A DNA stretch of 64,000 nt from Synechococcus sp. (GCA_047285535.1 JBJBDC010000001.1:1920136-1984135); one strand, 5' to 3'. Counted from the first letter of the stretch, positions 8,041 to 32,144 are shown. The notes: a model not told the origin generated them from the sequence alone. A program made the numbers and translations.

Positions 8041-8054
8041 TGTGTTGTTGGCAC

Positions 8055-15043: not shown

Positions 15044-15199
15044 AATCCGCAAAGCGTCTTCAGACTGTCTACTCTAATAACATCATCGCGCGATTTACGC
15101 ATTGAATATTTTTTTGTTTCATCAAATAGTATTTCTTGACTATATTCGATTGAGAATTTTCACAATCGGCACGGCTCGATTTCACTAAAAATCATAAAA

Positions 15200-15571
15200 T
15201 TTTTGATCTCGAGCCGATGCCAGCTATGGTTTTGTACTTTTCCCCTACTCCGGACAGAATATCCAAATGTCGAATCAGCGCAGGATTGATGATATGAATT
15301 TCCCTAACTAAGGCAAACCGCATCTAAGCAGCAAACGGCAATGGAAGCATCACCTGGATCCCAGCATGGTGCAAAAAGCGGTGAAACGTACTGTGGCCGC
15401 AGCTGCCATACCTTCCGACATTCATGTGCAACACACCTGCTGGAACGGGAACAGGACATCCGCACGATTCAGGAACTGCTGGATCATAAGGATTTGAGCA
15501 CTACCATGATCTATACCCAAGTTCTGAATTCAGGGCCTCTCAGTGTGCGTAGCCCCAACAACTTTGACTAG
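15200..15571 (+). pseudogene. intI: Integron integrase remnant (C-terminal part), a different paralog from the intact intI
   Basis: Fragments [28 protein letters not shown] and [43 protein letters not shown], with frameshifts and stops. Confidence 0.88.
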
Positions 15572-15819
15572 TACCATTAGTTGAGCCGGCTGACCTGGAG
15601 ATCATCAATAGTCTCGATCAAAAATCGTAAATTCGACAAGAACACAGCTCATACGAACAGTTCAACTTCCAGTTTTTACAGAAGCCAGAAATGAGAAAAA
15701 GGGAGCATCATTCCCTTTAAAGAGCAGTGAATTCGAAACAGCTATCACCAGTCAAAACGGCTTAACCCCCTAGTGGAGTGTGATGAGCGACAGCCAAATT
15801 GGCAGAGGCTTAAATATAT

Positions 15820-15945
15820 AGATATCGGAACCGTGAACCATGACTAAGGTTGGAGCAGGATCTGCTTAAAACAATGCCATCAAAGCGATCTGATCTAGGG
15901 CCAACTGCGGAGGGTCTGCAGTAAGCCAGACCATAGTGATCCATC
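15820..15945 (+). repeat. Repeat family copy 1 (partial; putative intI-3'/attI platform)
   Basis: cggaaccgtgaaccatgactaaggttggagcaggatct...aatgccatcaaagcgatc resembles 28285-28350, 30990-31055 and 31855-31910. Confidence 0.6.
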
Positions 15946-15965
15946 CAGAGACAAGAGACATCAAA

Positions 15966-16739
15966 ATGAGTCAAGCACTGGTTGTTGGAGCGAGCGGAGC
16001 AACTGGCCAATTGCTTGTTGCTGAATTACTGAATCGTGGAGTTGATGTCATTGCCATCGTCCGATCATCCAGTTCTCAGAAGCACAAATTCGGACTTTAT
16101 TCAAACTATCATGAAGTTTCAGGCAGCATCAGTGAGATGACTGAAGCTGAACTCATCCCACTGGTTGATCAGTGCGATTTTGTGTTTTCCTGCCTTGGCC
16201 ATAACCTGACATGGAAAGGCGTGTTTGGACAACCCCGACGGCTTGTGACAGATAGCATTCGCAAACTATCCCGAATCATTGAATCATTGCAATTCAACAA
16301 GAAAGTAAAAATCGTTTTAATGAATACAACGGGCAACAGTAACCGTGACTATCCAGAAATCCCACCGTTATCACAGAGAATTGTTGTTTTGATTTTGAGG
16401 GTTTTACTTCCGCCCCATGCTGATAATGAACAAGCTGCAGATTTTCTGAGAACGCAAATTGGACAGAATCACCCATCAATTGAATGGGTCGCAGTGAGGC
16501 CTGATGGCCTTACGAATCACACGAACGTAACTGACTATTCCATTCACCCCTCACCAACACGCAACGCGATCTTTGACGCAGGATCAACCAGCCGGATTAA
16601 TGTTGCCAATTTCATGGTGAACTTGGCAACCGATCTTGATTTATGGGGTGAATGGAAAGGGAAAATGCCTGTTATTTACAATGATACTTCACAAGAAGAT
16701 CATTCAAAAGATGATGTTTCACAAATGCATTCAGGCTGA
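15966..16739 (+). CDS. NAD(P)H-binding oxidoreductase (flavin reductase / atypical SDR)
   Basis: VVGASGATGQL Rossmann motif, WVAVRP and TSRINVANF. Confidence 0.85.
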   Translation: MSQALVVGASGATGQLLVAELLNRGVDVIAIVRSSSSQKHKFGLYSNYHEVSGSISEMTEAELIPLVDQCDFVFSCLGHNLTWKGVFGQPRRLVTDSIRKLSRIIESLQFNKKVKIVLMNTTGNSNRDYPEIPPLSQRIVVLILRVLLPPHADNEQAADFLRTQIGQNHPSIEWVAVRPDGLTNHTNVTDYSIHPSPTRNAIFDAGSTSRINVANFMVNLATDLDLWGEWKGKMPVIYNDTSQEDHSKDDVSQMHSG

Positions 16740-16796
16740 CTGGCAAACCTGTTCTGTGGCTCAGGATCATCAATGAAGACGATTGCCAGGTTACGA
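16716..16796 (+). mobile_element. Degenerate attC remnant
   Basis: gtttcACAAaTGCATtCAgGCtGACtgGCAAA matches the left arm of the intact attC (acctAACAAtTGCATaCAcGCgGACcGCAAA); ctggcaa/ttgccag inverted repeat. Confidence 0.5.
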
Positions 16797-17240
16797 CACT
16801 TTATTCAGAACTTCACCTTGCTGATCAAGCGGATTGGTCACGATGAGAACAGAATCTTTGCGGCTTGTTGATGGTGTAGACGTCACAATGAACGCTCATA
16901 TCAGTGATGGAACCTAGTAGGAGCTTATTGCCTAGTTAATTCCTTTCAATTCCGTTGAACAGTTGGTGATCGGACCTGGTAATCCTGGCTCATTTTGGAC
17001 ATGGAGTCACCAGAAACCATGCCATCAAAACAATCCAAAACCTGGTGTGCAGTTAAGTCTTCGTGGTTCGCGGAATGGGAGGTCTAAGTCTTTAGCAAGC
17101 CAATCAATGCCCCAGCAGTCTCAAGCCTGACCTGCAACTGCGGCCGCCGTTGCCCTTGAAACAGTTGCTCGTTGGCGCGGAGGTTGTGACGTTGATGGCC
17201 GCAGCGGGGAACTCTGAGAAGGAGGCCAAGTGCAGTATCG

Positions 17241-18215
17241 ATGCAGAGCACAGCAAGCGCGCCAGGACTGATCCAGCGCTACCGGGAGGAACTACAGGTA
17301 CGCCACTACGCCCGCCGAACGATTTCCACCTATGTGCAGTGGCTGCGTCGCTTTCTGCGATTTCATGAAATGCGCCATCCACGCGAGATGGGGGAGGCGG
17401 AGATCAATGCATTCCTGAGCCATCTGGCGACGAAGGAGAATGTGAGCGCCTCCACCCAGAACCAGGCCCTTGCTGCTTTGCTGTTTCTCTACCGACAGGT
17501 TCTGAACAGTGATGTGGGACGTCTGGAGGGCGTGATCAGAGCCCGAAGGCGCCAACGCCTCCCCGTAGTACTCACAGTGGGGGAGGTGCGCGCTGTTCTG
17601 AGCCATCTCAAAGGAACGGAGGCCCTCGTATCCCAAATGTTGTATGGCAGTGGCTTACGGCTCATGGAAGCACTGCGGTTGCGAATCAAGGATGTGGATC
17701 TGCAGCAACGCTGCATCACGGTGCATTCAGGCAAGGGAGACAAGGACCGCCGCACCGTGCTGCCGACCCGCCTGGTCGAGCCCTTGAAACAGCACCTGCA
17801 AGCCGTGAAACGCCTTCACCAGTCTGATCTCGCGGCTGGTTGGGGGGCCGTTGAGCTACCGCATGCTCTGGACAGGAAATACCCAAATGCACCCAAAGAA
17901 TGGAGCTGGCAATGGCTGTTTCCACAAAGCCACCGCTGGCGGAATCCACGACAGAACAACGAAGGTCGGCACCATCTCGATGCCAGCATTGTTCAACGCG
18001 CCGTGCGAAATGCTGTTCAGGCAGCTGGTGTCAACAAACCAGCCACATGCCATACCTTCCGCCATTCATTCGCCACACACTTGCTGGAGCAGGGCTCTGA
18101 CATCCGCATGATTCAGGAGCTCCTTGGTCACAGTGATGTGAAGACCACGATGATCTACACCCATGTGTTGAACCGAGGGCCCTCAGGGGTGCGCAGCCCC
18201 GCCGACCTACTTTGA
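17241..18215 (+). CDS. intI: Integron integrase
   Basis: Tyrosine recombinase residues (GLR, GKGDKDR, HTFRH, LGH, TMIY) plus the IntI-specific insert [30 protein letters not shown]. Confidence 0.97.
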
Positions 18216-18224
18216 TGCCAAGAA

Positions 18225-18383
18225 TGTTATGCAGACTGCATAACAAAAAACAGCAAAATAGAAATCCGCCGAAATCATTGCTAAAACTTGACTATTGATT
18301 TAGAGGTGTCGAGCTATTGGCAGCTTATGGAGAAAAAACTTATCTGCTAGTAGCTTATGCGGACCGCCGAAACACTGTTAGGT
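18225..18383 (+). mobile_element. attI region downstream of intI
   Basis: Palindrome tgttatgcag-a-ctgcataaca (18225-18245); second TTATGCRGACYGC copy at about 18356; core GTTAGGT at 18377-18383, 10 bp before the first cassette ATG. Confidence 0.8.
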
Positions 18384-18393
18384 TCGTTAAACG

Positions 18394-19344
18394 ATGAGCG
18401 ATATTCAACAACAGACATATTGGAATAACATCATTAAGCCGTTGCTGCCGGTCGCTTCAACAATTATTGTTGCCTTTGGTGGTTGGTTTATTACTCACAC
18501 ATATAACAGTGCTCAAATAAAATTAGAAAAACAGAAACAAACCGACAACAAAACAACATCGGAAATCAAAGCTTCTCTTTCGTATGTAGATTTTCTTGCT
18601 GGAAATCCTCCGCCAAGCGATGATCTAAAAGATCAAGCTCTTCTTGCCGTAGCCCCAGCGTTACCACCCGAACTTAGCTTTGATCTTGCTGTAGAGGCGT
18701 TGCCGGAAGATGATCGTGTTTTCAAACTCCTTCTGCGTATTCACCAGGAGGAATCTTGGAAATACGTATCACCGTTCATTGAAGATGAAAAGACTTCACA
18801 GTGCGTTTTGAAGGCATTGAATGACCAGAACTACCTAAACAAAGAATTTGCATATCTGATTTCTGAAAAAAATAGTCGGTCAAGTCACCGTTTGAAAGCG
18901 TTGTGGTTCTACTTTCGGTATGTCAATTCTCTTGCGGCCACACAAGACACAATGCTTGAAAGCATGAACCAAATGATTACAAAAGGAACCGCAAATGGAA
19001 TATCTGAAGATGCAAGAGCAGCATTACAACTAGCTGCTGCGATGTCTTTACTTGTCTATGACGAGGAAACTCTGGAGCAATTGCGAGACACCTTTAAGAG
19101 GTTAGATGCAGTAGAGTGGAAGAAACGGTTTTCATATGATCTTGGTTCCTTGAGTGGGCACAGATTTTATCGCTCTTTAAGTAAGGATAAGCAATTACAG
19201 CGAAAATATGCTGAGATGATGGTTGATTGGTATTACCAATATTCTAAAAATGGTTGGGGTATTCCAAAATTCTTATCTACGGTCGAAGAAGATCATAAGG
19301 ATCTCAGTATCAAGATCAGTGAAATATTCAAACGAATTGGGTAA
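18394..19344 (+). CDS. First-position integron cassette protein of unknown function, with an N-terminal TM helix
   Basis: 316-aa AT-rich ORF bounded by GTTAGGTTC and its reverse complement GAACCTAAC. Confidence 0.85.
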   Translation: MSDIQQQTYWNNIIKPLLPVASTIIVAFGGWFITHTYNSAQIKLEKQKQTDNKTTSEIKASLSYVDFLAGNPPPSDDLKDQALLAVAPALPPELSFDLAVEALPEDDRVFKLLLRIHQEESWKYVSPFIEDEKTSQCVLKALNDQNYLNKEFAYLISEKNSRSSHRLKALWFYFRYVNSLAATQDTMLESMNQMITKGTANGISEDARAALQLAAAMSLLVYDEETLEQLRDTFKRLDAVEWKKRFSYDLGSLSGHRFYRSLSKDKQLQRKYAEMMVDWYYQYSKNGWGIPKFLSTVEEDHKDLSIKISEIFKRIG

Positions 19345-19360
19345 AACTTGCCATGTATGA

Positions 19361-19447
19361 ACCTAACAATTGCATACACGCGGACCGCAAAAAGCGCCGC
19401 TCCTTCGTCGCTCTGCTTTTTGCGGCCGGTGATGCAAGGCGTTAGAA
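19361..19447 (+). mobile_element. attC site (87 bp, canonical)
   Basis: R'' ACCTAAC; L'' TGCATACAC against L' GTGATGCA (one extrahelical base); stem ccgcaaaaagc/gctttttgcgg; R' GTTAGAA. Confidence 0.93.
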
Positions 19448-19483
19448 GTACGGGAAGAAGTTCAACGATCGCGATTACAGCTA

Positions 19484-20224
19484 TTAGGCCCCCCCACACG
19501 AATGCTGGGTTGCTGGCATGATCCAAGACCGTAGATTTCGGAGATTTGTTGCTGAGTAGATCTTGCCGCGATCATCACCAGGCGGGCAATTTTTTGGAAT
19601 AGACACCAGGCAAAAAACAACTTGATCACCAATTCGTGAGGCCGCCACATCGGGATTAAATTCATAGGAGACTTGAAATCCTCCATTGTCATATTGAACG
19701 GTTGTTCCTTCGTTTTCCGTATAGCTCTTAGGTGGAACGACCATCTGTCGGTCATGAAACCGTGTACCGATGTCTTTGATCTTGGTTTGAGAGCACGTCC
19801 CGACTCTTTGAGGGACTCCACTCACCATTGGTGTCTTACCGTTTTCGATGAGGGAAAGTCTGTATGCACCAATCCATGGTGGCTTAGAAATGTTTGCTCC
19901 AACCTCATTGAGATCATCAATAATTTGATCCTGAGTGTCAAGGATGCAGAGCTTATTACTCCCACACGCATGGCGTACATCCAAGAAACTCAAAAGAAAG
20001 TCTTGCGCGATGGATCGACTTTCTCCCTTGATTTGGCCATAACCAAAAGAGGCTATTTGATCAAGTTCAGACAACTTCTGGTTATCGCAAATTGTGATTT
20101 CATCTTGATAACGTGCACGATTACAATCAAAACTTGGCCTAAAATCTTTTGCGCTGGCTTCCGATCCAAAAAGAAACACAAACAAGCCCATGAGGAGATG
20201 CATCCAACAGGCAAATTGAATCAT
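19484..20224 (-). CDS. Secreted Cys-rich protein with an LprI/DUF1311-like N-terminal domain
   Basis: Signal peptide, then PSFDC.RA...E..IC....LS.LD....R.AC....CI pattern. Confidence 0.7.
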   Translation of the reverse strand: MIQFACWMHLLMGLFVFLFGSEASAKDFRPSFDCNRARYQDEITICDNQKLSELDQIASFGYGQIKGESRSIAQDFLLSFLDVRHACGSNKLCILDTQDQIIDDLNEVGANISKPPWIGAYRLSLIENGKTPMVSGVPQRVGTCSQTKIKDIGTRFHDRQMVVPPKSYTENEGTTVQYDNGGFQVSYEFNPDVAASRIGDQVVFCLVSIPKNCPPGDDRGKIYSATNLRNLRSWIMPATQHSCGGA

Positions 20225-20453
20225 GGAATTTTCAATGAACTCATTCTATTTTCTTGTTAATCAGACTTGTGGTGCTTGCCAAGTAAATGCTGGTATCAGC
20301 TTTCTGATCCTTGAAAGCCGATGACTGCCAAGCTGAGTTCATCCAAACTTCTATGTCCAGCTTCTCCACTCGCTCCTCAGGAAGCCAGGCAGACCCGAAG
20401 CTCTTTGCCCTTTTGGTAATAGGTCTCAAGGGGTCTACTGGGGGAGAGAAGAC

Positions 20454-20664
20454 AACCAGGGCACTGATCTGATGATCGTGGCGCGCTCTGATGAACGATC
20501 AGCGCTGGCAACAAGCCACGGCGATAGCCCGCCTGGAGTCAGCACTCTGGAGGCTGTGGGCCTTGGCTAACCGAGCAGGAGATGCATCATTTCCGCTAGG
20601 AGATCCCGGGCAAGCACAAGGCGAAGATGCTGGAAGTTGGCATCACACCGTTGTTGTCGACCGA
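20454..20664 (+). pseudogene. Degenerate partial copy of the PEP-mutase-family gene (matches 12948-13199)
   Basis: Shares blocks gatcgtggcgcgc, gcgctggcaacaagccacgg and ggcatcacaccgttgttgtcgaccga; has an internal deletion. Confidence 0.85.
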
Positions 20665-20746
20665 GGGGAGGCTCCAGGAATAACATCGCCAGCGATGATG
20701 AGTTCCTTGCGGGGCAACTCTGCTGAACTCTTGATTGCGGCTGACA

Positions 20747-21748
20747 ATGGGTGAGCAGACATTTGAAATCCCAGCTTTTGAACCGCAATGCGGAGGCACC
20801 ATCAACCTCAAGCTCGCCTACCGGGTGTATGGCGAACTCAGTGCGACAAAAGACAACCTGATCGTTTTTCCCACCCACTACGGGGGCCGTTCGGACGACG
20901 TTGCATTCCTCATTGGCGAGGAGATGGCTCTCGATCCTAGGAAATACTGCATCGTCGTCCCCAATCTGTTTGGAAACGGGGTGTCATCCTCGCCGAGCAA
21001 TACCCCTGCCCCCTTTGCTGCTAAGACGTTCCCGACGCTCACCTACTACGACAACGTCGTCTGCCAACGACGGATGATCGAGGCTGTTTTCGGGGTGAAG
21101 CGTATACGCCTCGTCGTAGGGTTCTCCATGGGTGCGATGCAAGCCTACGAATGGGCAACACAGGCCCACAATTTGGTTCAACGCTTCGCGGCAATTTGCG
21201 GTAGCGCTCGTACCTATGAACACAACCAGCTGTTCCTCGATTCCGTTTGTGCTGCGCTAACTGCCGACTCCGCCTATCGCGATGGAACGTACACGTCTCC
21301 TCCCACGAGAGGTCTTGAAGCATTCAGCGTCGCCTATGCCGCCTGGTTTGCCTCTCAACAGTTCTACAGCGAGCAGATCTATCGAGCCGCTGGGTTCGAG
21401 CGGATGCAAGACGTCGTCGACCTTGCGAAGTCGGTATTTATGGCTCAAGACGCGAATGACCTTCTCGCCATGGCGGCAACCTGGCGTGCTGGGGACCCCA
21501 GCGCCAATCCGGTCTATAACGGCGACTTCGAGAAGGCGCTTCGCTCGATCACCGCACGCGGGCTCGTGATGCCCTGTGTGAGCGATCTCTACTTTCGAGT
21601 TTCCGATAACAAGCGCGAAGTGGACTTACTCCGCAACGCTGAGCTCGCTCCCATCCAGTCAGATTACGGACACCTAGCCGGGGCGGGGCTCGACCCCTCA
21701 GCAGTCATGTTCATCAATGGCAAGCTCTCCGAGCTGCTGGCGTCTTGA
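20747..21748 (+). CDS. Homoserine acetyltransferase-like alpha/beta hydrolase
   Basis: LAY..YG.L, GNG.SSSPSN, GFSMG, SDLYF and GHLAG motifs. Confidence 0.85.
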   Translation: MGEQTFEIPAFEPQCGGTINLKLAYRVYGELSATKDNLIVFPTHYGGRSDDVAFLIGEEMALDPRKYCIVVPNLFGNGVSSSPSNTPAPFAAKTFPTLTYYDNVVCQRRMIEAVFGVKRIRLVVGFSMGAMQAYEWATQAHNLVQRFAAICGSARTYEHNQLFLDSVCAALTADSAYRDGTYTSPPTRGLEAFSVAYAAWFASQQFYSEQIYRAAGFERMQDVVDLAKSVFMAQDANDLLAMAATWRAGDPSANPVYNGDFEKALRSITARGLVMPCVSDLYFRVSDNKREVDLLRNAELAPIQSDYGHLAGAGLDPSAVMFINGKLSELLAS

Positions 21749-21796
21749 ACACGGCACGGACCATCGAACCTTGGGCCATCACCATCAGATCCAACA

Positions 21797-22474
21797 ATGC
21801 GCTCCCATTACTTGAAGCATGTCCCGTTTGAAGGCCTGGGAAGTATTGAGCACTGGTTCCAAAGCAAGGGTTACGCCATATCAAGACCGAATGGTTTCAT
21901 TCGCAGCTTCTCCCTGCCCTTGAAGACGTTGATCTACTTGTTGTGGTGGGTGAGCGGATGTCAGTTAACGATGAAACAGACCATCCATGGCATGCCAAAG
22001 AGAAGGAATTCATCAGACGTGCCATTGAGGCCGGGAAGCCCGTTCTTGGAATTTGTTTGGGTGCTCAACTCATTGCTGATGCGAAGGGAGCCATCGTTGT
22101 CTCCAATTCAACAAAAGAAATTGGCTGGTTTCCTGTTGAATCCGTTTCTTCAGACCATGCGTCTGTCTTTCAATTTCCAGACGTCACAGAAGTCTTCCAT
22201 TGGCATGGCGGAACCTTTGACCTGCCTGAAGGAGCTGCTCAAATCGCCAGAAGCAAGGGTTGTGAAAATCAGACTTTTCCACTCGGCAGCAATGTGATTT
22301 TGGCTTGCAATTCCACTTGGAAACAACCCCGAAATCTACAACAGCGATTGTCGACCATTGCAGAGAGGAACGCGTGTAAGAGAAATAGATCCAATCAGAA
22401 GCGGTGATCCTTTCTGCTCCCGAAGCACGCTATTCGCCCATCAACGCTTTAATGGCAAACATCCTTGGCCATAA
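21797..22474 (+). pseudogene. Type 1 glutamine amidotransferase, frameshifted
   Basis: HVPFEGLGSI, LGICLGAQL and FHWHG motifs are split across frames. Confidence 0.8.
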
Positions 22475-22520
22475 ATGCAGAAGTCAGAGCTAAGATCAGA
22501 ACCCTCAAAAGCATGCAGCT

Positions 22521-23285
22521 TTGCCGAACAAAATCAAGGTATTCGACAGTCATTTTCATATCATCGATTCTCGTTTTCCACTAATACGGAACAATGGCTA
22601 TTTACCCGGGGAATTCACTCATCAAGACTACAAAAAACGACTATCAACATTCGACCTTGTTGGCGGAACAATCGTTTCTGGATCGTTTCAGGGCTTTGAC
22701 CAAGGCTATCTTTTGTCGGCCTTGAAATCATTTGGTCCTGGATATGCTGGGGTCACTCAATTGCCACATCACACACCAGACAGCACAATCATTGAGCTTC
22801 ATTCGGCAGGAGTGAGAGCACTACGATTCAACCTTTATCGCGGAGGATCTGCAAGCCTTGCTGTGATGATTGCAATGGCAAAACGAGTTCATGAACTCGT
22901 AAAATGGCATATCGAGTTATATCTAGATTCCACAGACCTTGAGGAGATATCCACGGCATTAATGTCGCTACCTGCCGTCTGCATTGATCACCTAGGCATG
23001 AAAAAAGAAGGTTTTCACCATCTCCTGAAGCTTGTAGAACAAGGCCATAAAGTGAAGGCCACTGGATTTGGCCGCATCGATTTCAGCCCATCTGAAGCAA
23101 TCAAAACATTGTATCGAGCCAACCCAGATTCATTACTGTTTGGCACTGATTTACCATCAACAAGAGCAGCAAAACCCTTCCAAATCAGCGATGTGAATAT
23201 CATTCTCAATTCCCTTGGCCGTGAAGCTTCAAACAAAGTATTGAAAGATAATGCGATTGCGTTTTACAAACTAAAAGTTGGCTAA
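22521..23285 (+). CDS. Amidohydrolase_2 family protein (lactonase-like)
   Basis: DSHFH, GVRALRFN, IDHLG and FGTDLP motifs. Confidence 0.85.
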   Translation: MPNKIKVFDSHFHIIDSRFPLIRNNGYLPGEFTHQDYKKRLSTFDLVGGTIVSGSFQGFDQGYLLSALKSFGPGYAGVTQLPHHTPDSTIIELHSAGVRALRFNLYRGGSASLAVMIAMAKRVHELVKWHIELYLDSTDLEEISTALMSLPAVCIDHLGMKKEGFHHLLKLVEQGHKVKATGFGRIDFSPSEAIKTLYRANPDSLLFGTDLPSTRAAKPFQISDVNIILNSLGREASNKVLKDNAIAFYKLKVG

Positions 23286-23299
23286 CTGGTGCAAGAACG

Positions 23300-23376
23300 C
23301 GCTAATAAAAAAGCTAAATCCGACCGCCCAAAATGCCGACGGCACTTTGGGCGGCGGCTGTGACTTGCCATTAGAC
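23300..23376 (+). mobile_element. attC-like site with variant cores
   Basis: CGCTAAT...ccgcccaaaatgcc/ggcactttgggcgg...ATTAGAC, just after the stop codon. Confidence 0.6.
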
Positions 23377-23479
23377 AATGCTCTTTTCCCATGTAGGATG
23401 CATAATTAACACACAGCTTCTATCCTTCTACACAGCTTGCCTTCACAAATAATAGCTATGATCATGCATAAAGCATTTC

Positions 23480-24043
23480 ATGGTAGATCCCAACGATAGA
23501 GCATCTGAAGCTCCTATCTCCGTGATCGTTGATAGGAATGTGTTACCAGGAAAGACAAAAGAATTCGAAGAGTACGTACAAAAGATTATTGAAGCCTCAA
23601 GTCGCTTTCCAGGGTATATTGGAACTGACGTCATTAATCCTGATAGAGAAAATAGATATATTGTAGTTTTTCGTTTTGCGTCAAAAGAACAACTTGAGAC
23701 TTGGACCTCATCACAAGAGAGAGCTTACTGGATTCATAAAATCGATCGAGTGATAGAACAACCTACCAAGCTAGTTTCTCTTACGGGCCTAGAAACTTGG
23801 TTTGTCCTATCCAAATCCAATAGATTTTATCCACCCCCGAAGCACAAAATGGCAGTTGTTGTGTATCTGGCAATCTCTTTAACTTTAACTGTTTTTGATT
23901 TCTTCTTTGGTGGCTACTTTGCCTCAATACCCATTCCACTGAAATTTTGGGCGACCAGCCCATTTATTGTTATCATAATGACCTATCTATCCATGCCAAT
24001 CCTGACGAAAGCGTTTAAAAAATTCCTATTTTACCAAAGCTAA
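23480..24043 (+). CDS. ABM-domain protein with two C-terminal TM helices
   Basis: FPGYIG, VVFRF..E.L..W..S.ER, GLETWF, PPKHKMA and MTY..MP motifs. Confidence 0.85.
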   Translation: MVDPNDRASEAPISVIVDRNVLPGKTKEFEEYVQKIIEASSRFPGYIGTDVINPDRENRYIVVFRFASKEQLETWTSSQERAYWIHKIDRVIEQPTKLVSLTGLETWFVLSKSNRFYPPPKHKMAVVVYLAISLTLTVFDFFFGGYFASIPIPLKFWATSPFIVIIMTYLSMPILTKAFKKFLFYQS

Positions 24044-24104
24044 TGTTCGCTTAAGAAAAAATATGGATTGTTGCGGCTACAGAATTGCTGGTCGTATTTC
24101 TACG

Positions 24105-24180
24105 ATTTAATACAGTGGGCCGGGGCAATCTCTGGCTTTGATCGAAAGATTTGAGCCGCTACTGGCCTCAGATGTTAGGC
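24105..24180 (+). mobile_element. Degenerate attC-like site
   Basis: ATTTAAT..ggcc..aatct/agatt..ggcc..GTTAGGC. Confidence 0.45.
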
Positions 24181-24394
24181 ATGGTTTGACGGTTTGATGT
24201 TGCCTGAGCCAGGGAATTGGACTCTGCAAAACAGAGCGTTTCAAGAATGCAAGCCCAGGACATTGCCAACCCCTGGGTGAACCCGGGCCTGCATTAATCA
24301 CATCCTGCATCGCCCTTGAATTCAATCCACAAGCCAGCTTGCGGCTGCCCAAAGTTTTGGCTACCGAAAGCTTGTCAGCTTGCAGCATTCGCCT

Positions 24395-25990
24395 ATGGCC
24401 GAAGTGATGTTGCTAACGCTGCTGGTCGCCCTGCCCCTCACCCTGGCGCTATCGGCCCTGATTGCCTGGCGCTACAGGAACACCGTGCGCAAGCTGATGC
24501 GGCTTGCCCCATCCCCAAACGACAGCGACAGCCCAGTTGTAGTCAAATCGGAGCTGGAAGCCCTAGCCATGGCGCCGGCCGATCGACCAGTGCGGCTGTC
24601 AGCATCGCTGTCTGCAAGAGAACGGCAGCTGAACCTGAGCCTTGCTCTCTGCAGTGTGCTGATTAGCACCACCGGGGCCTGGCTTTATCTCCTGGTGCAT
24701 CAGCAGGAGATCGGTGGCATCACCCCCCTACGACTGCTGCTGGTGAGCCTGGTGTGGTGCAGCCCGGGGCTGGTGCTCCAGGCCTTGGTGCTGCGCTGGC
24801 CCCTGTCGCGACAGTTGCCCGTGCTGCTGGGCTGGGGCACTGCCCTGGTACTGCTGCTGGCGGCGATGAGCTCCGGGGGCTTCTCTGTCGCATCCCTGAG
24901 CTTCGTAGTCGTGCACATCCTGCTGCCGCTAGTGGTGCTTGGGCTGCTCTTTGGTGTGCCGGTTCTGCGAGCCATCGCCCCCTATCTATTTCCTGTGGTG
25001 GCCGCTCTCTGCCTAGCGGTGAACGCGGCCTTCGATGCCCTGGCAGCGCTGGTGGAGCAAGAATCAGCCTGGATCGGCTCTGTGTTGCCGGTCAGCGGCG
25101 CAATGGGGCTGATCCTGCTCGTGGCGCTGGTGGCCTTGTTGGCGACCTGCCTACCTGCCCATTCTCTGGTCAAGGTGCTGGGCGGGCTCTACCGCCGCCA
25201 GGTCTTCTCTGATCTCTCCTATCTGTTTGGTGCCAGCTGGCTGCTGGTGTTGACTCTGGAACTGATACCGACCATCAGAGCAGCCGGAGCAGGCCTGGCT
25301 TCCCTTCTGCCATTGCTGGCTTGGCTGTGGATTCCCCTGCTATTCCGCTGGCTGCCACGGCTGATGCCGCCGCCGCCCCCCTCCTGCAGGCCCCCGCGAC
25401 TGCTGGTGTTGCGGGTATTCCGGCGAGGCGGGCCGATGGCCTGGCTCTTCGACCATGTGGTGCAGCGCTGGCGCTTGATCGGACCGGTACTGTTGATCAC
25501 CGCCGCCGACCTGGCCTCGCGAACCATTGAGCCCCACGAGTTGGTGGCCTTCGTGGAGGGCCGCTTGCACAATCGCTACATCAGCACTGCGACCCAGCTC
25601 CAGACTCAGCTGGACCAGATCCAGGACCAACCCGATCACGATGGTCGCTGGCGTGTGCATGAATTCTGTTGCTACGCCAACAGCTGGAAACAAAGCCTGG
25701 ATGCTCTGTTGAGTCGATCCGATGTGGTTCTGATGGATCTTCGCGGATTTAGCAGCCGCAATGCCGGCTGCCGCCATGAGTTGCGCCGTATCGGCCAGAG
25801 CAACCATCTACGAGCTGCTGTGCTGTTAATGGATCGCCACACCGATCAAACTGCGGCCCAGGAAGCGCTTGGTGCCCAACCTGCCGCTGCCATCACCTGG
25901 CAACCAGCCGAGCAGCGACGCATCCCCGCGAGTACTGCCGTGCTTGAGCCGCTGCTGCAGCCCTTCCAATCGCCATCGAGACATCTCTAA
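24395..25990 (+). CDS. Multi-pass membrane protein with a C-terminal TIR/deoxyribosyltransferase-like alpha/beta domain
   Basis: About 9 hydrophobic segments, then LLVLRVF...SDVVLMDLRGFS..NAGC.HEL. Confidence 0.7.
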   Translation: MAEVMLLTLLVALPLTLALSALIAWRYRNTVRKLMRLAPSPNDSDSPVVVKSELEALAMAPADRPVRLSASLSARERQLNLSLALCSVLISTTGAWLYLLVHQQEIGGITPLRLLLVSLVWCSPGLVLQALVLRWPLSRQLPVLLGWGTALVLLLAAMSSGGFSVASLSFVVVHILLPLVVLGLLFGVPVLRAIAPYLFPVVAALCLAVNAAFDALAALVEQESAWIGSVLPVSGAMGLILLVALVALLATCLPAHSLVKVLGGLYRRQVFSDLSYLFGASWLLVLTLELIPTIRAAGAGLASLLPLLAWLWIPLLFRWLPRLMPPPPPSCRPPRLLVLRVFRRGGPMAWLFDHVVQRWRLIGPVLLITAADLASRTIEPHELVAFVEGRLHNRYISTATQLQTQLDQIQDQPDHDGRWRVHEFCCYANSWKQSLDALLSRSDVVLMDLRGFSSRNAGCRHELRRIGQSNHLRAAVLLMDRHTDQTAAQEALGAQPAAAITWQPAEQRRIPASTAVLEPLLQPFQSPSRHL

Positions 25991-25997
25991 ACCCACC

Positions 25998-26462
25998 ATG
26001 ACCATGTTGGATTCCGACGCCTATCTGCACGACCGCCTCAACCAGCAACTGTCCTGGCTCAGCAAGGCCAGCCGCGGCAACAAAAGAAACTTTCTTCAGT
26101 TGCGAATCCTTGAGGTGCTGCTGGGCATCGGCATCACGATCTTCAGCCCTTTCGCAATGCAATGGGGCTGGAGGGGGGCACTGGTGCTGTCGCTAGCGGG
26201 AGGTGGCATCGCCGTGTGCGGTTCTCTGCTGGCGTTGAATCATCATCAAGAAAACTGGCTGCGCTACCGCGGCCTGGCCGAAGCGCTCAAGCGCCAAAAA
26301 TATCTCTTTCTGACAGGAACCTGCCCCTATGACGACGCCTCCACAGCGTTCCCGCGCCTGGTGTCGACCTGCGAATCTCTACTGAGTGTTGAAAACAACC
26401 AGTGGAGCCAGGAGATGAGCAAGCTGTCTGAGGCGAAGGTCGCCGGAACACGGAACAGCTGA
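25998..26462 (+). CDS. DUF4231 (SLATT-related) 2-TM protein
   Basis: Y...RL..Q..W....., two TM helices, ENWLRYR..AE.LK..K.LFL...PY and E.LL..EN..W. Confidence 0.85.
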   Translation: MTMLDSDAYLHDRLNQQLSWLSKASRGNKRNFLQLRILEVLLGIGITIFSPFAMQWGWRGALVLSLAGGGIAVCGSLLALNHHQENWLRYRGLAEALKRQKYLFLTGTCPYDDASTAFPRLVSTCESLLSVENNQWSQEMSKLSEAKVAGTRNS

Positions 26463-26709
26463 ACCCAAACAACGACAAAACACTTGAAGGCCTGAGACCG
26501 TGGTACCGAGTCTCCCAGCACCCCTCACCTTCGGAGGCGTTGAAGTGATTCCAGAAGGAGTGGACGCAGGTGAGAGTCTCACTTCGGCGATCAGTGCCAC
26601 TGATCAATGACACTGAGGAAGATCCACTCAAACAACAACCACTGCCATGCACCACAATGGCTGGAGTCATTCAAAAGCCTTTCTTCATTCAAGAAGCGAT
26701 AAAGAGATT

Positions 26710-26796
26710 GTCCAACTACAGCTTGCACCCGACCCGGCATCAAGTTGAGGTATGCCGCTGAAGTTGCATGCGGAAGTGGGGAGATGAGTTTTAGGC
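26710..26796 (+). mobile_element. Degenerate attC-like site (87 bp)
   Basis: GTCCAAC-tacagcttgcacccgac...cggcat/atgccg...TTTAGGC. Confidence 0.5.
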
Positions 26797-26891
26797 ATAC
26801 ATAATCTCAAACTAAAATACATCAACTTGAGTAAACTTAGAGCTGGCCAAACCCTAATAGAGCGGAGATCAATTCAGCTAAGAACAACATC

Positions 26892-28058
26892 ATGACGCAC
26901 TCATCAGCCCACGCGGCCCCTTTGGATATAGCAATTATCGGTGCAGGGCCCGGCGGACTCAGTGCAGCTCACGCATTGGCAAACCGAGGTTTTTCTGTAG
27001 GCATTTTTGACCGAGCCCAAATTCTGCGCCCGATTGGAGCAGCTCTTGGACTTGCCGAACAGGGATATGCTGCTCTCAATGCAATTAGTCCTGATCTTTC
27101 TAAGCAAGTTCAGTCCAAAGCCATCAATCCCAGACAACAACTTCTCATGCGGCCAAATAGTGAGGTCTTGTTCGCAGATGAATCGCCGATGGCAGGGACA
27201 AGTTTCACCTGGCTGGGATGGTTTAATTTGCAAGCTTGTCTTTGTGAAGCTCTTCCCAACTCAGTTCAGTTAAACCTTAACCACAGTCTTACCGAATTCA
27301 TTTCTGATCGACTTGACACACCCATCTGTCTCAAATTTCGGGATCAAGCTGACCAATTTGCTCGAATTTTGATAGGAGCCGATGGCTATCGCTCAGTGGT
27401 CAGAAACAAAACAGTTGGAGATGGTCCTCCTGTGTACACAGGCACGATGACTTGGCGAGGCACTCTGCCCAGAGAAAAACTAGTTCCTCTTGAAGAACCT
27501 TTCATCGAAGGAGCTGGTTTTCAGCTGGTTGTAGGAGAACAAAAGAATTTTTGGATAATGGATGCTGGTGCCAATCAAATAGCCTGGGGTGGCACTGCAC
27601 CTCAAGCCAGCTCAGAGAAAAGTGAATCTGCTGTCAATACTGCACTTCATGTCTTTGAGGATTGGCCTGCCATTGTGCAAAAGATGATTCTTACGACAGA
27701 TCCTTTAAGCATCATTGAGACAGGTGTATTCGATCGAAAACCCGTGTCTCAATGGGGAGATGGTCAACGCATAACCCTTTTAGGTGATGCTGCCCATCCG
27801 ATTCGTCCATCCTTGGGTCTAGGAACAACTCTCGCTTTACAAGATGCAGTGACTCTTGCCGAAGTGCTTGAGGCAATAACACCTACAGACATTCCATCTG
27901 TTTCAGCTGCTCTCTCGCGGTACGAACAAAAGAGAATTGAGATCACAACACCCTTGCAGAAAAAAGCCTCTGAACAGGGGTTAGCGTCCCATGCTGACGA
28001 TCAAGCGGATCGGCTAAAAATAGGTTTTGAGGCCGCTTTAGCGAGTCGAAAAAAATAA
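26892..28058 (+). CDS. FAD-dependent monooxygenase
   Basis: GAGPGGL, IGADGYRSVVR and LLGDAAHP...G.G....LQDA motifs. Confidence 0.92.
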   Translation: MTHSSAHAAPLDIAIIGAGPGGLSAAHALANRGFSVGIFDRAQILRPIGAALGLAEQGYAALNAISPDLSKQVQSKAINPRQQLLMRPNSEVLFADESPMAGTSFTWLGWFNLQACLCEALPNSVQLNLNHSLTEFISDRLDTPICLKFRDQADQFARILIGADGYRSVVRNKTVGDGPPVYTGTMTWRGTLPREKLVPLEEPFIEGAGFQLVVGEQKNFWIMDAGANQIAWGGTAPQASSEKSESAVNTALHVFEDWPAIVQKMILTTDPLSIIETGVFDRKPVSQWGDGQRITLLGDAAHPIRPSLGLGTTLALQDAVTLAEVLEAITPTDIPSVSAALSRYEQKRIEITTPLQKKASEQGLASHADDQADRLKIGFEAALASRKK

Positions 28059-28109
28059 TTGCCTCTTCCCTTTGATTCCTAAGCCAGTGTTCCTGCGCCA
28101 AACCGCGAA

Positions 28110-28196
28110 GTCCACCAATCCGTTGCAGCGCACTGGCAAAAGAACTCTTGTTGTTGCTCCAGAGTTACAAACAGAAGATGAAAGCAATCGTTAGGC
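28110..28196 (+). mobile_element. Degenerate attC-like site (87 bp)
   Basis: GTCCACC-aatccgttgcagcg...aactct/agagtt...gcaatcGTTAGGC. Confidence 0.5.
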
Positions 28197-28223
28197 GTGT
28201 TGGTAATAGCCAATTCCCGATCA

Positions 28224-28442
28224 ATCAAACATCCGACATGCTGAAGCTCGCTTTATCGCCATAGACCCGGCTGAAGCTTGGGTTAACGGACCGATGAACC
28301 ATGTCTAAATTGGAGCAGGATCTTGTTGAGCCATGCGCCCACAGTGATCAAACAGGTGCCAGGCCCCGCAGAACTACGCGGTTCACAGGTGCAGCCGCAT
28401 GTGCGGCATCGCAATCAGAACCACCCATACAATTCAGAAGGC
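28224..28442 (+). repeat. Repeat family copy 2 (putative attI platform)
   Basis: atcaaacatc..tgaagctcgctttatcgccatagacccggctgaa is near-identical to 31785-31836; ends atcagaaccacccatacaattcAGAAGGC. Confidence 0.75.
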
Positions 28443-28458
28443 AACTGCTATCAACATC

Positions 28459-29100
28459 ATGCATCAAATCTTGATCTATTCGGACAGCTTAACCTGGGGA
28501 ATTATCCCAGATTCCAGAGAACGTTTATCATTTGAAAAGCGATGGCCTGGTGTTTTTGAACATTCACTGATTGAGGCCGGAAAAAATGTCAGGGTTATAG
28601 AAAACTGTCTTAATGGTCGTAGAACAGTATGGAGTGATCCCTTCAAGGAAGGGCGAGATGGCTCGCAAGGACTCGCTCAAGTCATAGAAATGATGTCACC
28701 ACTGAAGCTGGTGATTTTGATGTTGGGCTCAAATGATTTTCAATGTACGCACAACAACAATGCTTGGTTATCTGCACAAGGAACAGCCAAACTGATCCAA
28801 ATCGTTCGCCAAGCACCTATAGAGCCCGTTATGCCCGTGCCCGACATCATGGTCGTCGCTCCACCAGCGATCATTCAGCCCAAAGGAGTGATTGCCAGCA
28901 AATTCGAGGGGGCAGAAAAACGGTGTGCAGGGTTGGCAAATGAACTCAAGAAAGTGGCTAATGAACACTCAGCGCATTATTTCAATGCAGGAAATGTCAC
29001 CAAAGCCAGCGCTATCGATGGCATCCATTTAGATGAAAATCAACATCAATTATTGGGTAAAGCCCTGGCAGATGCAGTCTCTGAAAGTTTAGCCTTCTAA
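28459..29100 (+). CDS. SGNH/GDSL hydrolase
   Basis: SDSLTWG, LNGRRT, MLGSND and DGIH motifs. Confidence 0.92.
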   Translation: MHQILIYSDSLTWGIIPDSRERLSFEKRWPGVFEHSLIEAGKNVRVIENCLNGRRTVWSDPFKEGRDGSQGLAQVIEMMSPLKLVILMLGSNDFQCTHNNNAWLSAQGTAKLIQIVRQAPIEPVMPVPDIMVVAPPAIIQPKGVIASKFEGAEKRCAGLANELKKVANEHSAHYFNAGNVTKASAIDGIHLDENQHQLLGKALADAVSESLAF

Positions 29101-29149
29101 TAAGTGGCTAATGCGTACGATGCACTTCGCCGCAAGCCGAGCATTATCC
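29095..29149 (+). mobile_element. Short attC-like site overlapping the stop codon
   Basis: TTCTAAT-aagtggctaatgc...gcaagccgagc-ATTATCC. Confidence 0.6.
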
Positions 29150-29184
29150 GCCCAGATTAAATTCACTCAGATGGAACTCGACGC

Positions 29185-29577
29185 ATGTCTGACACCATCA
29201 TTGACCACTTTTTTCAATGTGTAGTTGATGGCGACACTGACGGCGCCATCAAGCTCACGACGGATGACGTCACGTTTGAAGTGCAAGGACCCGCAAGTGT
29301 TCCCATTTACGGCAAATTTCATGGCCATGATGGTGCTCGCAAGTTCTTTGCAACGCTCCGCGAGTTGTTGGACTCGGAAGCTTTTGCAGTTCACTCAACG
29401 CTTGCAAACGACCAAATAGCGTTTGGGTACGGAACCATGCAGCACCGCGTGAAACAAACAGGTCGGCTATTCCAATCCGAATGGGCTCTGTATTGCGTTC
29501 TCTTCGATGGAAAAATATCTCACTATCGGATTTTTGAGGACACTGCCGCTTTGGCAGCCGCTTACGTCAACCATTGA
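29185..29577 (+). CDS. NTF2/SnoaL-like protein
   Basis: DDV...GP..VP..G.FHG and GKI..YRIFEDT motifs. Confidence 0.8.
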   Translation: MSDTIIDHFFQCVVDGDTDGAIKLTTDDVTFEVQGPASVPIYGKFHGHDGARKFFATLRELLDSEAFAVHSTLANDQIAFGYGTMQHRVKQTGRLFQSEWALYCVLFDGKISHYRIFEDTAALAAAYVNH

Positions 29578-29776
29578 GAGTGGTCGTTCAGCAAGCCCTA
29601 AGACATCAGCCCGGCAGACTGCTCTCATCCAAGCGAGCATGCGGTCGTTTCAAAGGGACAAGTTGGAACGTCATGCAAGCTTTAAGGATTGAGCTCCGAT
29701 CGTCAGCTCCCTGGTTCTCAGCTTGCAAGCCCAAGGCTTGAAAGCGCAGAACAACCCTTCAGCCAAGAAAGCATCC

Positions 29777-30724
29777 ATGACAAGTTCTGGATCAGAACCA
29801 GTCTCCGGTCAACAAACGGAGAAGACCTTGGATCCAATCGTCCTGGAGCGATGTCGCGATCTGGTGGGATTGCTTTTCCCATGGGACATGAACCGGGCAC
29901 TGGAACTGGCCTTGCTCAAAACCTTTTGCCTGCCATCAATCTCAGGCTTGCTGCAGCAGACCGGTGAGTTTGAACAACGCCCCCGCAAGCGCTACGACGA
30001 CACTGCTCTGATCGTGGCAGAACTGGTACGGCTTGGCCCTGATAGCCCAGGGGGCCGGGCCATCATCCAGCGCCTCAATCGGATTCACTCCACCTACGCC
30101 ATTCGCCAGGAGGATTACACCTACGTGCTCTCCGGTTTCGTCGCCGAACCGATTCACTGGATCGAGAATTACGGCTGGAGAGCTCTGCAACCCATTGAAC
30201 AAGAGGCGTTGGTCTTGTTCTGGGATCATGTGGGCAGTCTGATGAATCTTGAGCAACGCCCATGCAGTTTGCGGGAACTGATGGAGCTCAATCAGCGCGC
30301 CAATCTCAAACTGTTTGCCAGCGCCGAGAGCAACCAGCGTGTTGCAGACGCCACTATCGCCATGCTTCTGGCCCCTTGGCCTGGTCCATTGCACCGATGG
30401 CTCCGTTCCATCATGAGCAGTGTGTTGGAACCAGAAACGCTCAGCAGTCTGAACTGGCCCTCCCCTCCGGCCTGGCAGACCAAAGTCGTGTGGGGAGTGC
30501 TCCACTGCCGCAGCTTCATCCTCTGCACAGTCCTGCGTTTCTGGCCTCCCCAGCGACGACGCTTTTTCTCCGAGCGACCCACGACAAGCTATGGCAAGCA
30601 TTTCAGCCTGGAACAGATCGGCCCTCCATCACTGCTGCAACAGCTGAACAGCTCCAACCTTCGTGATGACTCGAAATACCGAAGAGAGGCTGACAACTCG
30701 CTGAATGACATTGGGAAATCTTGA
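29777..30724 (+). CDS. MpaB/DUF2236 oxygenase family protein
   Basis: PSIS.LL..TGEF...PRKRYDDT and RLNRIH..Y.I..EDY.YVL motifs. Confidence 0.85.
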   Translation: MTSSGSEPVSGQQTEKTLDPIVLERCRDLVGLLFPWDMNRALELALLKTFCLPSISGLLQQTGEFEQRPRKRYDDTALIVAELVRLGPDSPGGRAIIQRLNRIHSTYAIRQEDYTYVLSGFVAEPIHWIENYGWRALQPIEQEALVLFWDHVGSLMNLEQRPCSLRELMELNQRANLKLFASAESNQRVADATIAMLLAPWPGPLHRWLRSIMSSVLEPETLSSLNWPSPPAWQTKVVWGVLHCRSFILCTVLRFWPPQRRRFFSERPTTSYGKHFSLEQIGPPSLLQQLNSSNLRDDSKYRREADNSLNDIGKS

Positions 30725-30977
30725 ACCAAGATGCCACCTTTGTGATGTTGCACTGCTAAAGGTGACCTCCTCGCACTGATCTCAAGAACTTCAACATCAG
30801 CATCGATTGCACTACTTGAGTGAGCAACTCTCTGCCTCCATTATTTTCTTTGAAAGATGTAGCCATTCCTACGCAGAGCCTCTGAAAGCTGGCGATGTTT
30901 CAATCAAAGATCATTTTTGAAAAAAAGTTCTTTAAGGCCGCGCGACAACCTTGCCAGTTAAATCGAAAAGGAATAGG

Positions 30978-31141
30978 TGATCCTCGGCCCCGTGAATCAT
31001 GGCTACGATCGAAACAACCTGGAGCATGAAGCCATGCAGCCAAAGCGATCTCAGAGTTGCTATCCGTGGAGAGCTCCGTGATTTGCAGACGCAGCAAAAT
31101 ATGCCGAGTAGTGATCGGAACCGTCCAATCAATCATTAGGG
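30978..31141 (+). repeat. Repeat family copy 3 (putative attI platform)
   Basis: gtgaatcatggct...agccatgca..aaagcgatc...tatccgtggagagctcc...cagacgc...gtgatcggaaccgtccaatcaatcATTAGGG, 28 bp before an ATG. Confidence 0.75.
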
Positions 31142-31169
31142 CCCACACAACAACCGAGGTCGCATTGCA

Positions 31170-31712
31170 ATGAACGTTCGCGAACGATTAGAGGCAGGCC
31201 GTGCTACCACGAAAGACGCTTTTGAGGTCTTCGATTCACTTGAGCCCGTCGATGTTGGTTTTATGATTGGTAATTGGAAGGGTGAAAGCTTCCATACCAA
31301 TCACCCAATGGACGGCCTTCTTGAGGTCTATCACTGGTATGGAAAACGTTTTGAAAGTCTCGAAGATGTGCATCCGTTGGTGTTTTCAACACTTCGCGGC
31401 GGCGTGACCACTGTCAATCCCGCCTTGATGGGGTCGGCATTGCATGTGCCCATGCCAAAGTCAGCGATGGTGGGTCGTCTCTTCCAAACACTGTTGCCTT
31501 TGCTGTCAACGTCCCGGTCTACAGCTCGGCTGCGCATGACAACGTATCGGGGCAAGTCGAGCGCAACCATGATTTACGACCAGCTACCGATTAACGACGT
31601 GTTTCGCAAAATTGATCAGGATGCCGTGCTGGGCGTCATGGATTTGAAGGGAATGAAGGTGCCGTTCTTCTTCATCCTTCACCGTGAACATGGGGGCAAA
31701 AAATCCCCTTAA
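31170..31712 (+). CDS. GXWXG/DUF4334 domain protein
   Basis: FDSLEPV, GNWKG, HPMDG.L, WYGKRF and MIYDQLPINDVFRK motifs. Confidence 0.88.
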   Translation: MNVRERLEAGRATTKDAFEVFDSLEPVDVGFMIGNWKGESFHTNHPMDGLLEVYHWYGKRFESLEDVHPLVFSTLRGGVTTVNPALMGSALHVPMPKSAMVGRLFQTLLPLLSTSRSTARLRMTTYRGKSSATMIYDQLPINDVFRKIDQDAVLGVMDLKGMKVPFFFILHREHGGKKSP

Positions 31713-31784
31713 GGCAGTGAGTCTAGATGGTCCATTGTCTTCACTCAAGCGTGCGACTTAGTCATCACAGTTCATTTCATACAG

Positions 31785-32005
31785 ATCAAACATCTGTCTG
31801 GATGAAGCTCGCTTCATCGCCATAGACCCGGCTGAACAGTTGGTTATCGGATGGGTGAACCATGGCTCTTATTTGGCAAGAAGTTTCAAAGCCATGCGAT
31901 CAAAACGATCCGAGCACTCTTATCCATGCAGAGCTCCATGGTTCACAGACGCTGGTGAAGATGGGGAGTGGTGATCGGAACCCTCTAATCAATAAATTGT
32001 TGCTA
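31785..32005 (+). repeat. Repeat family copy 4 (putative attI platform)
   Basis: Collinear with copies 2 and 3; ends gtgatcggaaccctctaatcaataaattGTTGCTA. Confidence 0.75.
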
Positions 32006-32144
32006 GTCCTTTGCTGGGTAAGACAACAGCAACCTGAAATCCCATCAACAAAGCTCTGCTTCAAGACGAAAGATTTGTAATGCTTGTGGCTTCATTGCTG
32101 TGCCCTTGCCATAACAGGCCAATGGTTTCTCGCCTAAGAGGCGA

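Follow-up and report, generated by a model that had tools for sequence, protein, structure and literature searches.

Results

Repeat copies and integron genes in the window

The 64,000-nt stretch of Synechococcus sp. DNA analysed here (GCA_047285535.1, JBJBDC010000001.1:1920136-1984135; hereafter the window, with coordinates counted from its first letter) holds an intact integron integrase gene, intI, and, in the region covered from 15.2 to 32 kb, diverged copies of a repeat that is termed here the type-B element. A sequence-only reading of this DNA had proposed four copies as orphan attachment (attI) regions. All four were recovered in place, and a fifth, at 16955-17125, had been missed; the five are on the + strand, they are non-coding, and each lies immediately upstream of a co-oriented gene, as had been claimed. 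A repeat search of the window links positions 15823, 28284, 30982 and 31845, plus 16956-17036. When a profile of the copies was run against the whole genome of 3,025,339 bases, these five were the only copies found (E values from 7e-43 to 3e-29), the best match outside them having an E value of 0.044. Mean column identity in a five-way alignment is 60%, with blocks of invariant columns. The copies are mutually 70-75% alike, and are equally distant from the copies in G017, a relative of the same genus (G numbers denote compared genomes, L numbers loci or contigs).

Each copy was scored with R1, a covariance model built from 11 sequences. Copy 1 (15810-15992, +; 104 bits, E 1.6e-27) stands about 240 bp 3′ of an intI pseudogene, a spacing that matches G017, and copy 1b (16955-17125, +; 112.7 bits, nhmmer E 8.4e-34) stands 115 bp upstream of the intact intI. 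Copy 2 (28224-28446, +; 133 bits) and copy 4 (31785-32006, +; 148.5 bits) match the model over 28271-28446 and 31832-32006, respectively, and have in common a 5′ extension that in copy 2 adds 47 nt to the model match. Copy 3 (30969-31146, +; 144.3 bits) is the best-kept of the five.

The pseudogene ahead of copy 1 (15248-15571, +), already recognised in the sequence-only reading, corresponds to the C-terminal third of an integrase. It matches positions 201-311 of TIGR02249 (77.9 bits; 79.9 bits for the open reading frame (ORF) piece 15341-15571) and contains three in-frame stops, two TGA and one TAA. Over 55-56 C-terminal residues it is 77-84% identical to IntIs linked to type-B elements and 68% identical to the intact IntI of the window. 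The intact intI (17241-18215, +; TIGR02249 476 bits, cut-off 265) is oriented the same way as the cassettes and downstream genes. Because intI and cassettes point the same way in this integron group, attI would be expected just 3′ of intI, and the 168 bp that follow the gene (18216-18383, +) form a putative attI of another type, called type A, comprising two AGCTTATG boxes, CCGAAACACT and then the core GTTAGGT (18377-18383). The type-A attI is present once in this genome.

An initial scan for attC sites by regular expression and folding gave no real site and was superseded by R2, a covariance model made from six clear attC sites of two genomes. The attC of the first cassette (19357-19449, +; ACCTAAC ... 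GTTAGAA) scores 89.5 bits with R2, and the fold of its bottom strand has an energy of -26.7 kcal/mol (z -5.27), which none of 200 shuffles reached; compensatory pairs were also observed. A second clear attC (23297-23378, +; 70.5 bits, E 8e-15) ends in ATTAGAC. With an IntI above the cut-off and at least one attC on the cassette side, the live integron of the window is a complete one.

The element follows intI in related picocyanobacteria

As judged from alignments, the repeat is homologous to the sequence immediately 3′ of intI in related picocyanobacteria, for which the name type B was chosen. Full-length R1 matches occur in 46 of the 151 genomes of the family, at up to 15 copies per genome. 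The sequence-only reading had expected homologs immediately 3′ of intI, and this was borne out, on the same strand, in G017 (twice), G025, G052 and the Synechococcus metagenome-assembled contig L055, and in many more. One G017 copy lies about 250 bp after an intact intI and ends ..CCAATAAATA-GTTAGGC; the other, near-identical, follows an intI fragment 1.4 Mb away. In G025 and G052, which belong to another genus, the element starts about 20 bp after the intI stop codon and ends in GTTCGCT and GTTGGGC, respectively, and on L055 intI occupies 673-1638 and the element 1855-2032. Among the 29 best-hit loci from other genomes, 12 have an intI gene or remnant whose end lies immediately upstream in the same orientation. 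By hand tally, about 39 of the 139 element copies outside this genome abut an intI or intI remnant, which is a lower bound since short remnants were sought in five genomes and the 29 loci only. Among the same 151 genomes, an intI or remnant is present in 41 of 46 element-positive genomes versus 9 of 105 element-negative ones (hand tally). Two other searches gave few clear matches: BLAST of copy 4 against 101 relatives gave a clear match in G017 only and reached E 0.01 in six (G000 included), and a 15-mer scan of genome contigs returned 120 stretches, nearly all due to chance, with the full element in L055 and L159 only and part of it in L059. Within the window only copy 1 stands beside an intI in this way, the pseudogene; copies 1b, 2, 3 and 4 do not.

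The attI type follows the IntI clade. The two type-A IntIs, from this genome and from G026, the other type-A carrier, group with support of 100/99, and the pseudogene at copy 1 is closest to the type-B IntIs. The type-A attI is homologous to the DNA directly 3′ of both the main and the fragmentary intI of G026, and also to orphan copies in G017 (L040, reverse complement 4540-4658 and 5532-5686), G026 (L045, 17653-17822) and L055 (167-298). These orphans each sit after an attC or upstream of intI. In G017 the homology to the type-A attI of the window begins exactly at the expected position of the intI stop codon; the 95-137 bp before the G017 type-A orphans align with the intI region of this genome no better than shuffles do.

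Anatomy of the element and its core boundary

The full element spans about 175 bp. The intI stop codon precedes it by 10-20 bp, and in one sub-type by about 240 bp. A 13-bp box, GTGGTTCNCGGAA, occurs three times in direct orientation and once inverted, directly after the first box. The consensus of a 40-sequence alignment reads ctGAACAggTGGTTaTCGGACCCGTGAACCA ... cGTGGTTCaCGGAA ... cGTGGTTCtCGGAACCgTCCAATaActAGTTAGg, in which box 2 is the 13-bp near-palindrome GGTTC-TCG-GAACC. At the end of the element stands an L-like half-site, followed by two or three bases and a GTTRRRY core, the terminus being CCAATnAnnA and then GTTRRRY. Information content falls to zero directly beyond ..AGTTRG when 37 copies are anchored on box 2, and two G017 copies (G017_a and G017_d) are near-identical as far as ..AATAGTTA and unrelated beyond it, diverging at GTTA. 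Outside this genome GTT is present in 32 of 35 copies, and among the 29 with a full 7-mer, 27 read GTTR and 15 GTTRRRY. The tail of the family consensus resembles the type-A tail to a degree matched by only 0.4% of 2000 shuffles, which makes type-A and type-B attI distant homologs. Elsewhere in this genome the box motif is not enriched (2 matches versus 5.9 expected; 12 versus 6.0 expected).

Separately, a conserved leader, TGAGnGAGCAAC(AAC), starts 5-6 nt after a crossover core at four places, namely 30817-30828 in the window and reverse-complement positions 1462, 4414 and 5442 of G017 (L040, reverse strand). The core ahead of it is GTTAGGC, or GATTGCA in the window, and in three of the four an attI-like copy comes after it within about 100 bp.

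The window copies depart from the family at the core. None of the five ends in GTTRRRY with unrelated DNA beyond it, as the family does, and GTT at the crossover place is found in 0 of 5, versus the 32 of 35 elsewhere. Copy 1 retains box 1 and lacks the triplet, its middle box, box 2 and core being eroded. Copy 1b, likewise without GTT, has kept box 1, the middle box and CCAATCAAT and has lost box 2 and the core. The core of copy 2 is degenerate (TTCAGAAGGC; its remaining part is given as TTCAGAAGG). In copy 3 all boxes are present and the core is ATTAGGG, with A replacing the crossover G, and in copy 4 the boxes are retained, with AATTGTT in place of the core. For copies 2 to 4, the ends had been thought to resemble the attI end beside the intact intI. 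This holds for copy 3, whose local alignment score against the type-A end was reached by 0.1% of 2000 shuffles, and not for the ends of copies 2 and 4 taken alone, whose scores were reached by 58% and 62%.

Copy 2 is the ortholog of a G017 copy (G017_c) inside a 3-kb block that is 89% identical between the two genomes, and was therefore inherited or transferred together with that block. A complementarity between AGAAGGC at the end of copy 2 and GCCTTCT at the end of the following SGNH gene, read earlier as a cassette signature, did not survive the comparison: the two 7-mers are AGAAGAC and GATTTAT in the orthologous block and are not complementary, and no attC could be detected after the SGNH gene (covariance model with filters off and E up to 10; bottom-strand fold z -0.77).

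Cassettes and stacked platforms

R2 detected 11 co-oriented attC matches downstream of the element, spread over 10 of the 29 loci, and no upstream match in any of the 29. The G017 array runs intI, type-B element, ORF, attC; then type B, ORF, attC; then type A, ORF, attC twice over; and continues with blocks 89-93% identical to window positions 19360-20378, 20675-21924 and 27619-30671. Both attI types thus occur as orphans inside this array, each after an attC. The order on L055, [type A]-intI-[type B], mirrors the [type B]-intI-[type A] order of the window, and contig 37 of G147 carries three units of intI remnant plus element (6211-6641, 7931-8411 and 18391-18871) within 12.7 kb. Serial capture of whole integrons and subsequent integrase decay can be seen directly at three places, namely copy 1, the G147 contig and the mirrored arrangements of L055 and the window.

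Another stacked arrangement was seen in G042 (L047), where an intI C-terminal fragment at 680-790, 94.6% identical to the IntI of the window, lies 1.3 kb upstream of that genome's own intact intI, which is 72% identical. An apparent IS3-type OrfA frame, read from translated DNA, lies between the two.

A mobile module joined at the core in a relative

Five copies of a 2.47-kb module, 99.4-100% identical, occur in G227 (L202-L206). The module encodes a tyrosine recombinase (SAM_4 and Phage_integrase domains) and an IS91-family transposase (Y2_Tnp and Zn_Tnp_IS91). Four of the copies are joined exactly at ..CCAATnAnnA|GTT of type-B elements, one of them linked to intI and three of them orphans, and the fifth is inserted at an unrelated GTG|GTT. 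The module starts with GTTGAAC, and its right end is a hairpin with GTTCAAC that folds like a short attC (z -2.4). These junctions show that the core of the element, orphans included, is a live recombination target in this relative. The same module left end also follows the core of one element copy in G173 (L194), and the module was noted at L188 as well.

Genes flanking the copies

Copy 1 is followed by an NAD(P)H-binding (Rossmann) gene (15966-16739, +; PF13460 E 2.6e-18 on the ORF 15936-16739), whose likely start, read from the sequence, is the ATG at 15966. As had been claimed, this gene ends in an attC-like remnant, a truncated palindrome (16713-16796, +; arms 16740-16754 and 16775-16789, then GTTACGA) with a detected inverted repeat and membership in a direct-repeat family in common with the attC at 19365. 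With the attC model it obtains no score up to an E value of 10. After copies 2, 3 and 4 neither the attC model nor folding detected an attC, and the gene of copy 1 is followed by this remnant only. Just before copy 2 lies a weak attC remnant ending in GTTAGGC (28106-28198, +; 13.3 bits with R2, E 0.11 with filters off). Because the homology to G017 extends across this remnant, it does not mark a cassette boundary distinguishing the two genomes.

Copy 2 precedes an SGNH/GDSL hydrolase gene (28459-29100, +; PF13472 E 6.4e-12; likely start ATG 28459), copy 3 a GXWXG/DUF4334 gene (31170-31712, +; PF14231 E 6.7e-26, PF14232 E 1.6e-25), and copy 4 a Tc-like giant gene (32145-39896, +; 2583 residues) with SpvB, TcdB middle and RHS domains, resembling TcB/TcC. 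A second gene of the Tc-toxin-complex type (41498-50641; 3047 residues) has ABC_toxin_N, neuraminidase-like and TcA_TcB_BD domains and is TcA-like. This pair, directly after copy 4, lies in GC-richer DNA (about 60%, versus 44-50% in the cassette region).

A 5.7-kb segment, 21925-27618, is missing from the otherwise syntenic G017 array. It contains genes for an amidohydrolase, an ABM monooxygenase and a DUF4231/SLATT membrane protein, and the 5′ part of a flavin adenine dinucleotide (FAD) monooxygenase gene; the G017 junction at 27619 falls inside a 388-residue FAD-binding ORF. Just upstream of the island, a gene of the phosphoenolpyruvate (PEP) mutase/isocitrate lyase family (12504-13388) may mark phosphonate metabolism. 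No tRNA or tmRNA genes were found in the window. A sub-threshold Rfam match to the Pseudomonas small RNA P10 (25137-25198; 26.5 bits, gathering score 37, E 0.006) lies in a coding region and is probably due to chance.

Discussion

The type-B family probably represents the attI-type region of one picocyanobacterial integron lineage, a reading to which we assign a probability of about 0.75. We infer attI function from the position of the element and from the natural junctions at its end. As the family is homologous to the region between intI and the first cassette and ends in GTTRRRY, "orphan attI regions" would be an apt name for it. In the proposed mechanism an IntI of the matching clade would bind the terminal site, probably with the boxes as accessory sites, and would then recombine this site at G|TT with a cassette's folded attC, leaving the captured DNA joined at the core G|TTRRRY. 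The window would accordingly hold a live type-A integron stacked among five type-B relics, one of which still has a type-B-clade intI pseudogene ahead of it. The remaining copies would be orphans, copy 1b standing before the live intI and copies 2 to 4 farther down the island. Since all five have lost the GTT triplet, they most likely represent earlier or stacked platforms that have become fossils and do not work as docking sites. The idea that one IntI could use them in trans is doubtful, because their cores are lost and the sole intact IntI belongs to the type-A clade, which has its own attI. That the island grew by serial capture of integrons with decaying integrases holds for copy 1 and for the stacks in relatives. 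At copies 1b, 2, 3 and 4, where no remnant was found, integrase decay may have occurred in the same way.

Several observations weigh against an attI identity or limit its reach. About 100 of the 139 copies in relatives have no detectable intI alongside. A profile of the last 130 nt of intI, run on the window and on the G017 loci, detected no remnant upstream of copies 1b, 2, 3 and 4, its only matches being the two known intI ends. By hand tally only 13 of about 36 near-full-length intI genes are followed by a type-B element, so that type B would be one attI type among several. The compared genomes are kin and their counts are not independent, and misses of the six-site attC model are uninformative. 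In G227 the enzyme responsible for the insertions may be one of the two that the module encodes, the tyrosine recombinase or the IS91 transposase, and not IntI. Finally, the boxes of the window copies have been preserved better than the core has, which could mean a function other than recombination, and the near-palindrome of the box, GGTTC-N3-GAACC, is what would be expected for a dimeric regulator.

The last two points lead to an alternative that we regard as unlikely, in which the element is mainly an operator or promoter with a leader, a dimeric protein on the boxes controls the downstream gene, and adjacency to intI reflects control of cassette expression. Each window copy does stand immediately before a gene of the same orientation, the 13 bp of box 2 form a near-palindrome, the boxes persist despite the loss of GTT, and a possible -10 box, CTA-N3-T, can be read by eye after box 1 in many copies, although its conservation is weak. 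Against this, consensus scans for promoters and terminators gave counts at shuffle level and nothing inside the copies, no sigma-70-like promoter being called in any of them (a weak test for cyanobacteria), and the box is not enriched elsewhere in the genome. Regulation would also leave unexplained why conservation stops at GTTRRRY and why foreign DNA is joined there. The two functions are compatible in any case, given that attI1 also has a cassette promoter region nearby. An origin as a self-spreading repeat, either a non-autonomous element resembling a miniature inverted-repeat transposable element (MITE) or a preferred landing site of the IS91-plus-integrase module, with only a secondary link to intI, appears improbable. 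Such a repeat would account for the up to 15 dispersed copies per genome in relatives, for the majority of copies without intI beside them, and for the module at four G227 copies with its left end at one G173 copy. However, alignments with flanks revealed no terminal inverted repeats or target duplications, and the copies within a genome are old, those of the window being 70-75% alike; the MITE that the sequence-only reading had named as its possible undoing was thus not found. The 5′ end is moreover fixed 10-20 bp after the intI stop codon in dozens of cases, orientation always matches the downstream gene, and intI remnants, though of varying length, invariably run to the native stop, as would be expected from decay of intI but not from a repeat having inserted.

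That the element is a structured non-coding RNA or a riboswitch-like leader is highly improbable. A long-range stem, GTGAACC(..)/(..)GGTTCAC, formed by the inverted box with the middle box, is paired at 11 of 11 positions in copies 3 and 4, and over 40 sequences 80.9% of cells pair versus 75.0% in shuffles, none of 500 of which reached the observed value; this percentage, however, rests on an alignment fitted to the structure. Rfam 15 gave no match at gathering score in the window and nothing at the copies at E up to 5 (15000-32300), folds of single copies in six stretches were no better than those of shuffles (z -1.3 to +1.1), and the RNAalifold consensus fold reached only -3.1 kcal/mol with a covariation term of 0. 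The inverted box, at the DNA level, is enough to explain the stem. Least credible is a decayed coding remnant or small ORF. Copies 2, 3 and 4 have an ATG inside GAACCATGG that opens ORFs of 47-72 codons, in the same frame in copies 3 and 4. Copy 1, however, stops after nine codons, copy 1b lacks the ATG, the 3′ end of copy 2 is in another frame, the ATG is not kept in the family consensus, and conservation follows the boxes without a three-base period. The small-ORF interpretation was rejected on these non-conserved frames.

If the type-B family is indeed an attI family, it provides a sequence-defined attI for a large environmental bacterial group, together with a covariance model that finds it, and points to an unrecognised and widely scattered family of attachment sites in picocyanobacteria. 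Most copies being without an integrase, it would offer a concrete origin for cassette islands that lack intI, and it makes testable whether one integrase serves several docking sites in trans. It also flags a mobile element that homes to attI-type sites, and would explain the island of this genome as a live integron that overlies the fossils of a second one. The loss of activity in the window copies and the derivation of the orphans are parts of this account that we infer. A more speculative extension, which we hold only tentatively and consider doubtful as it stands, is that of "distributed integrons", in which dispersed attI pads without intI, up to 15 per genome, would be kept by selection and used in trans by a few IntIs and by parasites such as the IS91-plus-integrase module. 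Gene capture would then take place at many chromosomal islands and not in a single array, and the window would represent an end state in which the type-B network is dead, with mutations in its cores, and has been superseded by a type-A integron.

Among known systems, the attI1 of class 1 integrons consists of a simple site with L and R half-sites plus the direct repeats DR1 and DR2, and spans about 65 bp. The type-B element resembles it in standing beside intI and ending in a GTTRRRY site at which cassettes would be joined, in having an inverted L-like half-site a few bases before the core (CCAATAAC-TA-GTTAGG in type B), in its upstream direct repeats, which are potential accessory binding sites, and in the pairing of one recombinase clade with each attI type. 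It differs in its length of about 175 bp, in its three direct and one inverted 13-bp near-palindromic boxes, whose sequence is unrelated to DR1 and DR2, in its position 3′ and not 5′ of intI, and in its many copies per genome, most of which lack an intI. Integron sites are also targeted by mobile elements such as the IS1111-attC insertion sequences and the group IIC-attC introns. Like these, the G227 module is joined in several copies at the core of an integron recombination site, but its target is an attI-type core and not attC, and it is an IS91-family element that also carries a tyrosine recombinase. To our knowledge, only a handful of integron classes have known attI sites. In the literature on attI in picocyanobacteria or cyanobacteria, on orphan or multiple attI, and on IS91 elements with a tyrosine recombinase, searched through main texts, with one of the searches noisy, no such family was described.

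The sections of the IntegronFinder paper that define its classes distinguish CALIN elements, which are clusters of attC without intI, from In0 elements, which are intI without attC, both being degraded or partial integrons, and discuss loss of intI from one of several integrons as an origin (PMC4889954). These classes, in the same sections, are defined by attC and intI alone, so orphan attI copies form no category there; according to this standard finder attI is unknown for most integrons and cannot be searched for in them. In the Treponema-type chromosomal integrons, with which a Synechococcus IntI groups in the part of that study dealing with integrase relationships, intI is transcribed toward attI and the cassettes (PMC3607928), and the live integron of the window has this co-oriented layout. 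The passages on attI in the same study give one site per integron, poorly conserved and not analysed further. In contrast to the account in those passages, the type-B element appears as a conserved attI family with orphan copies.

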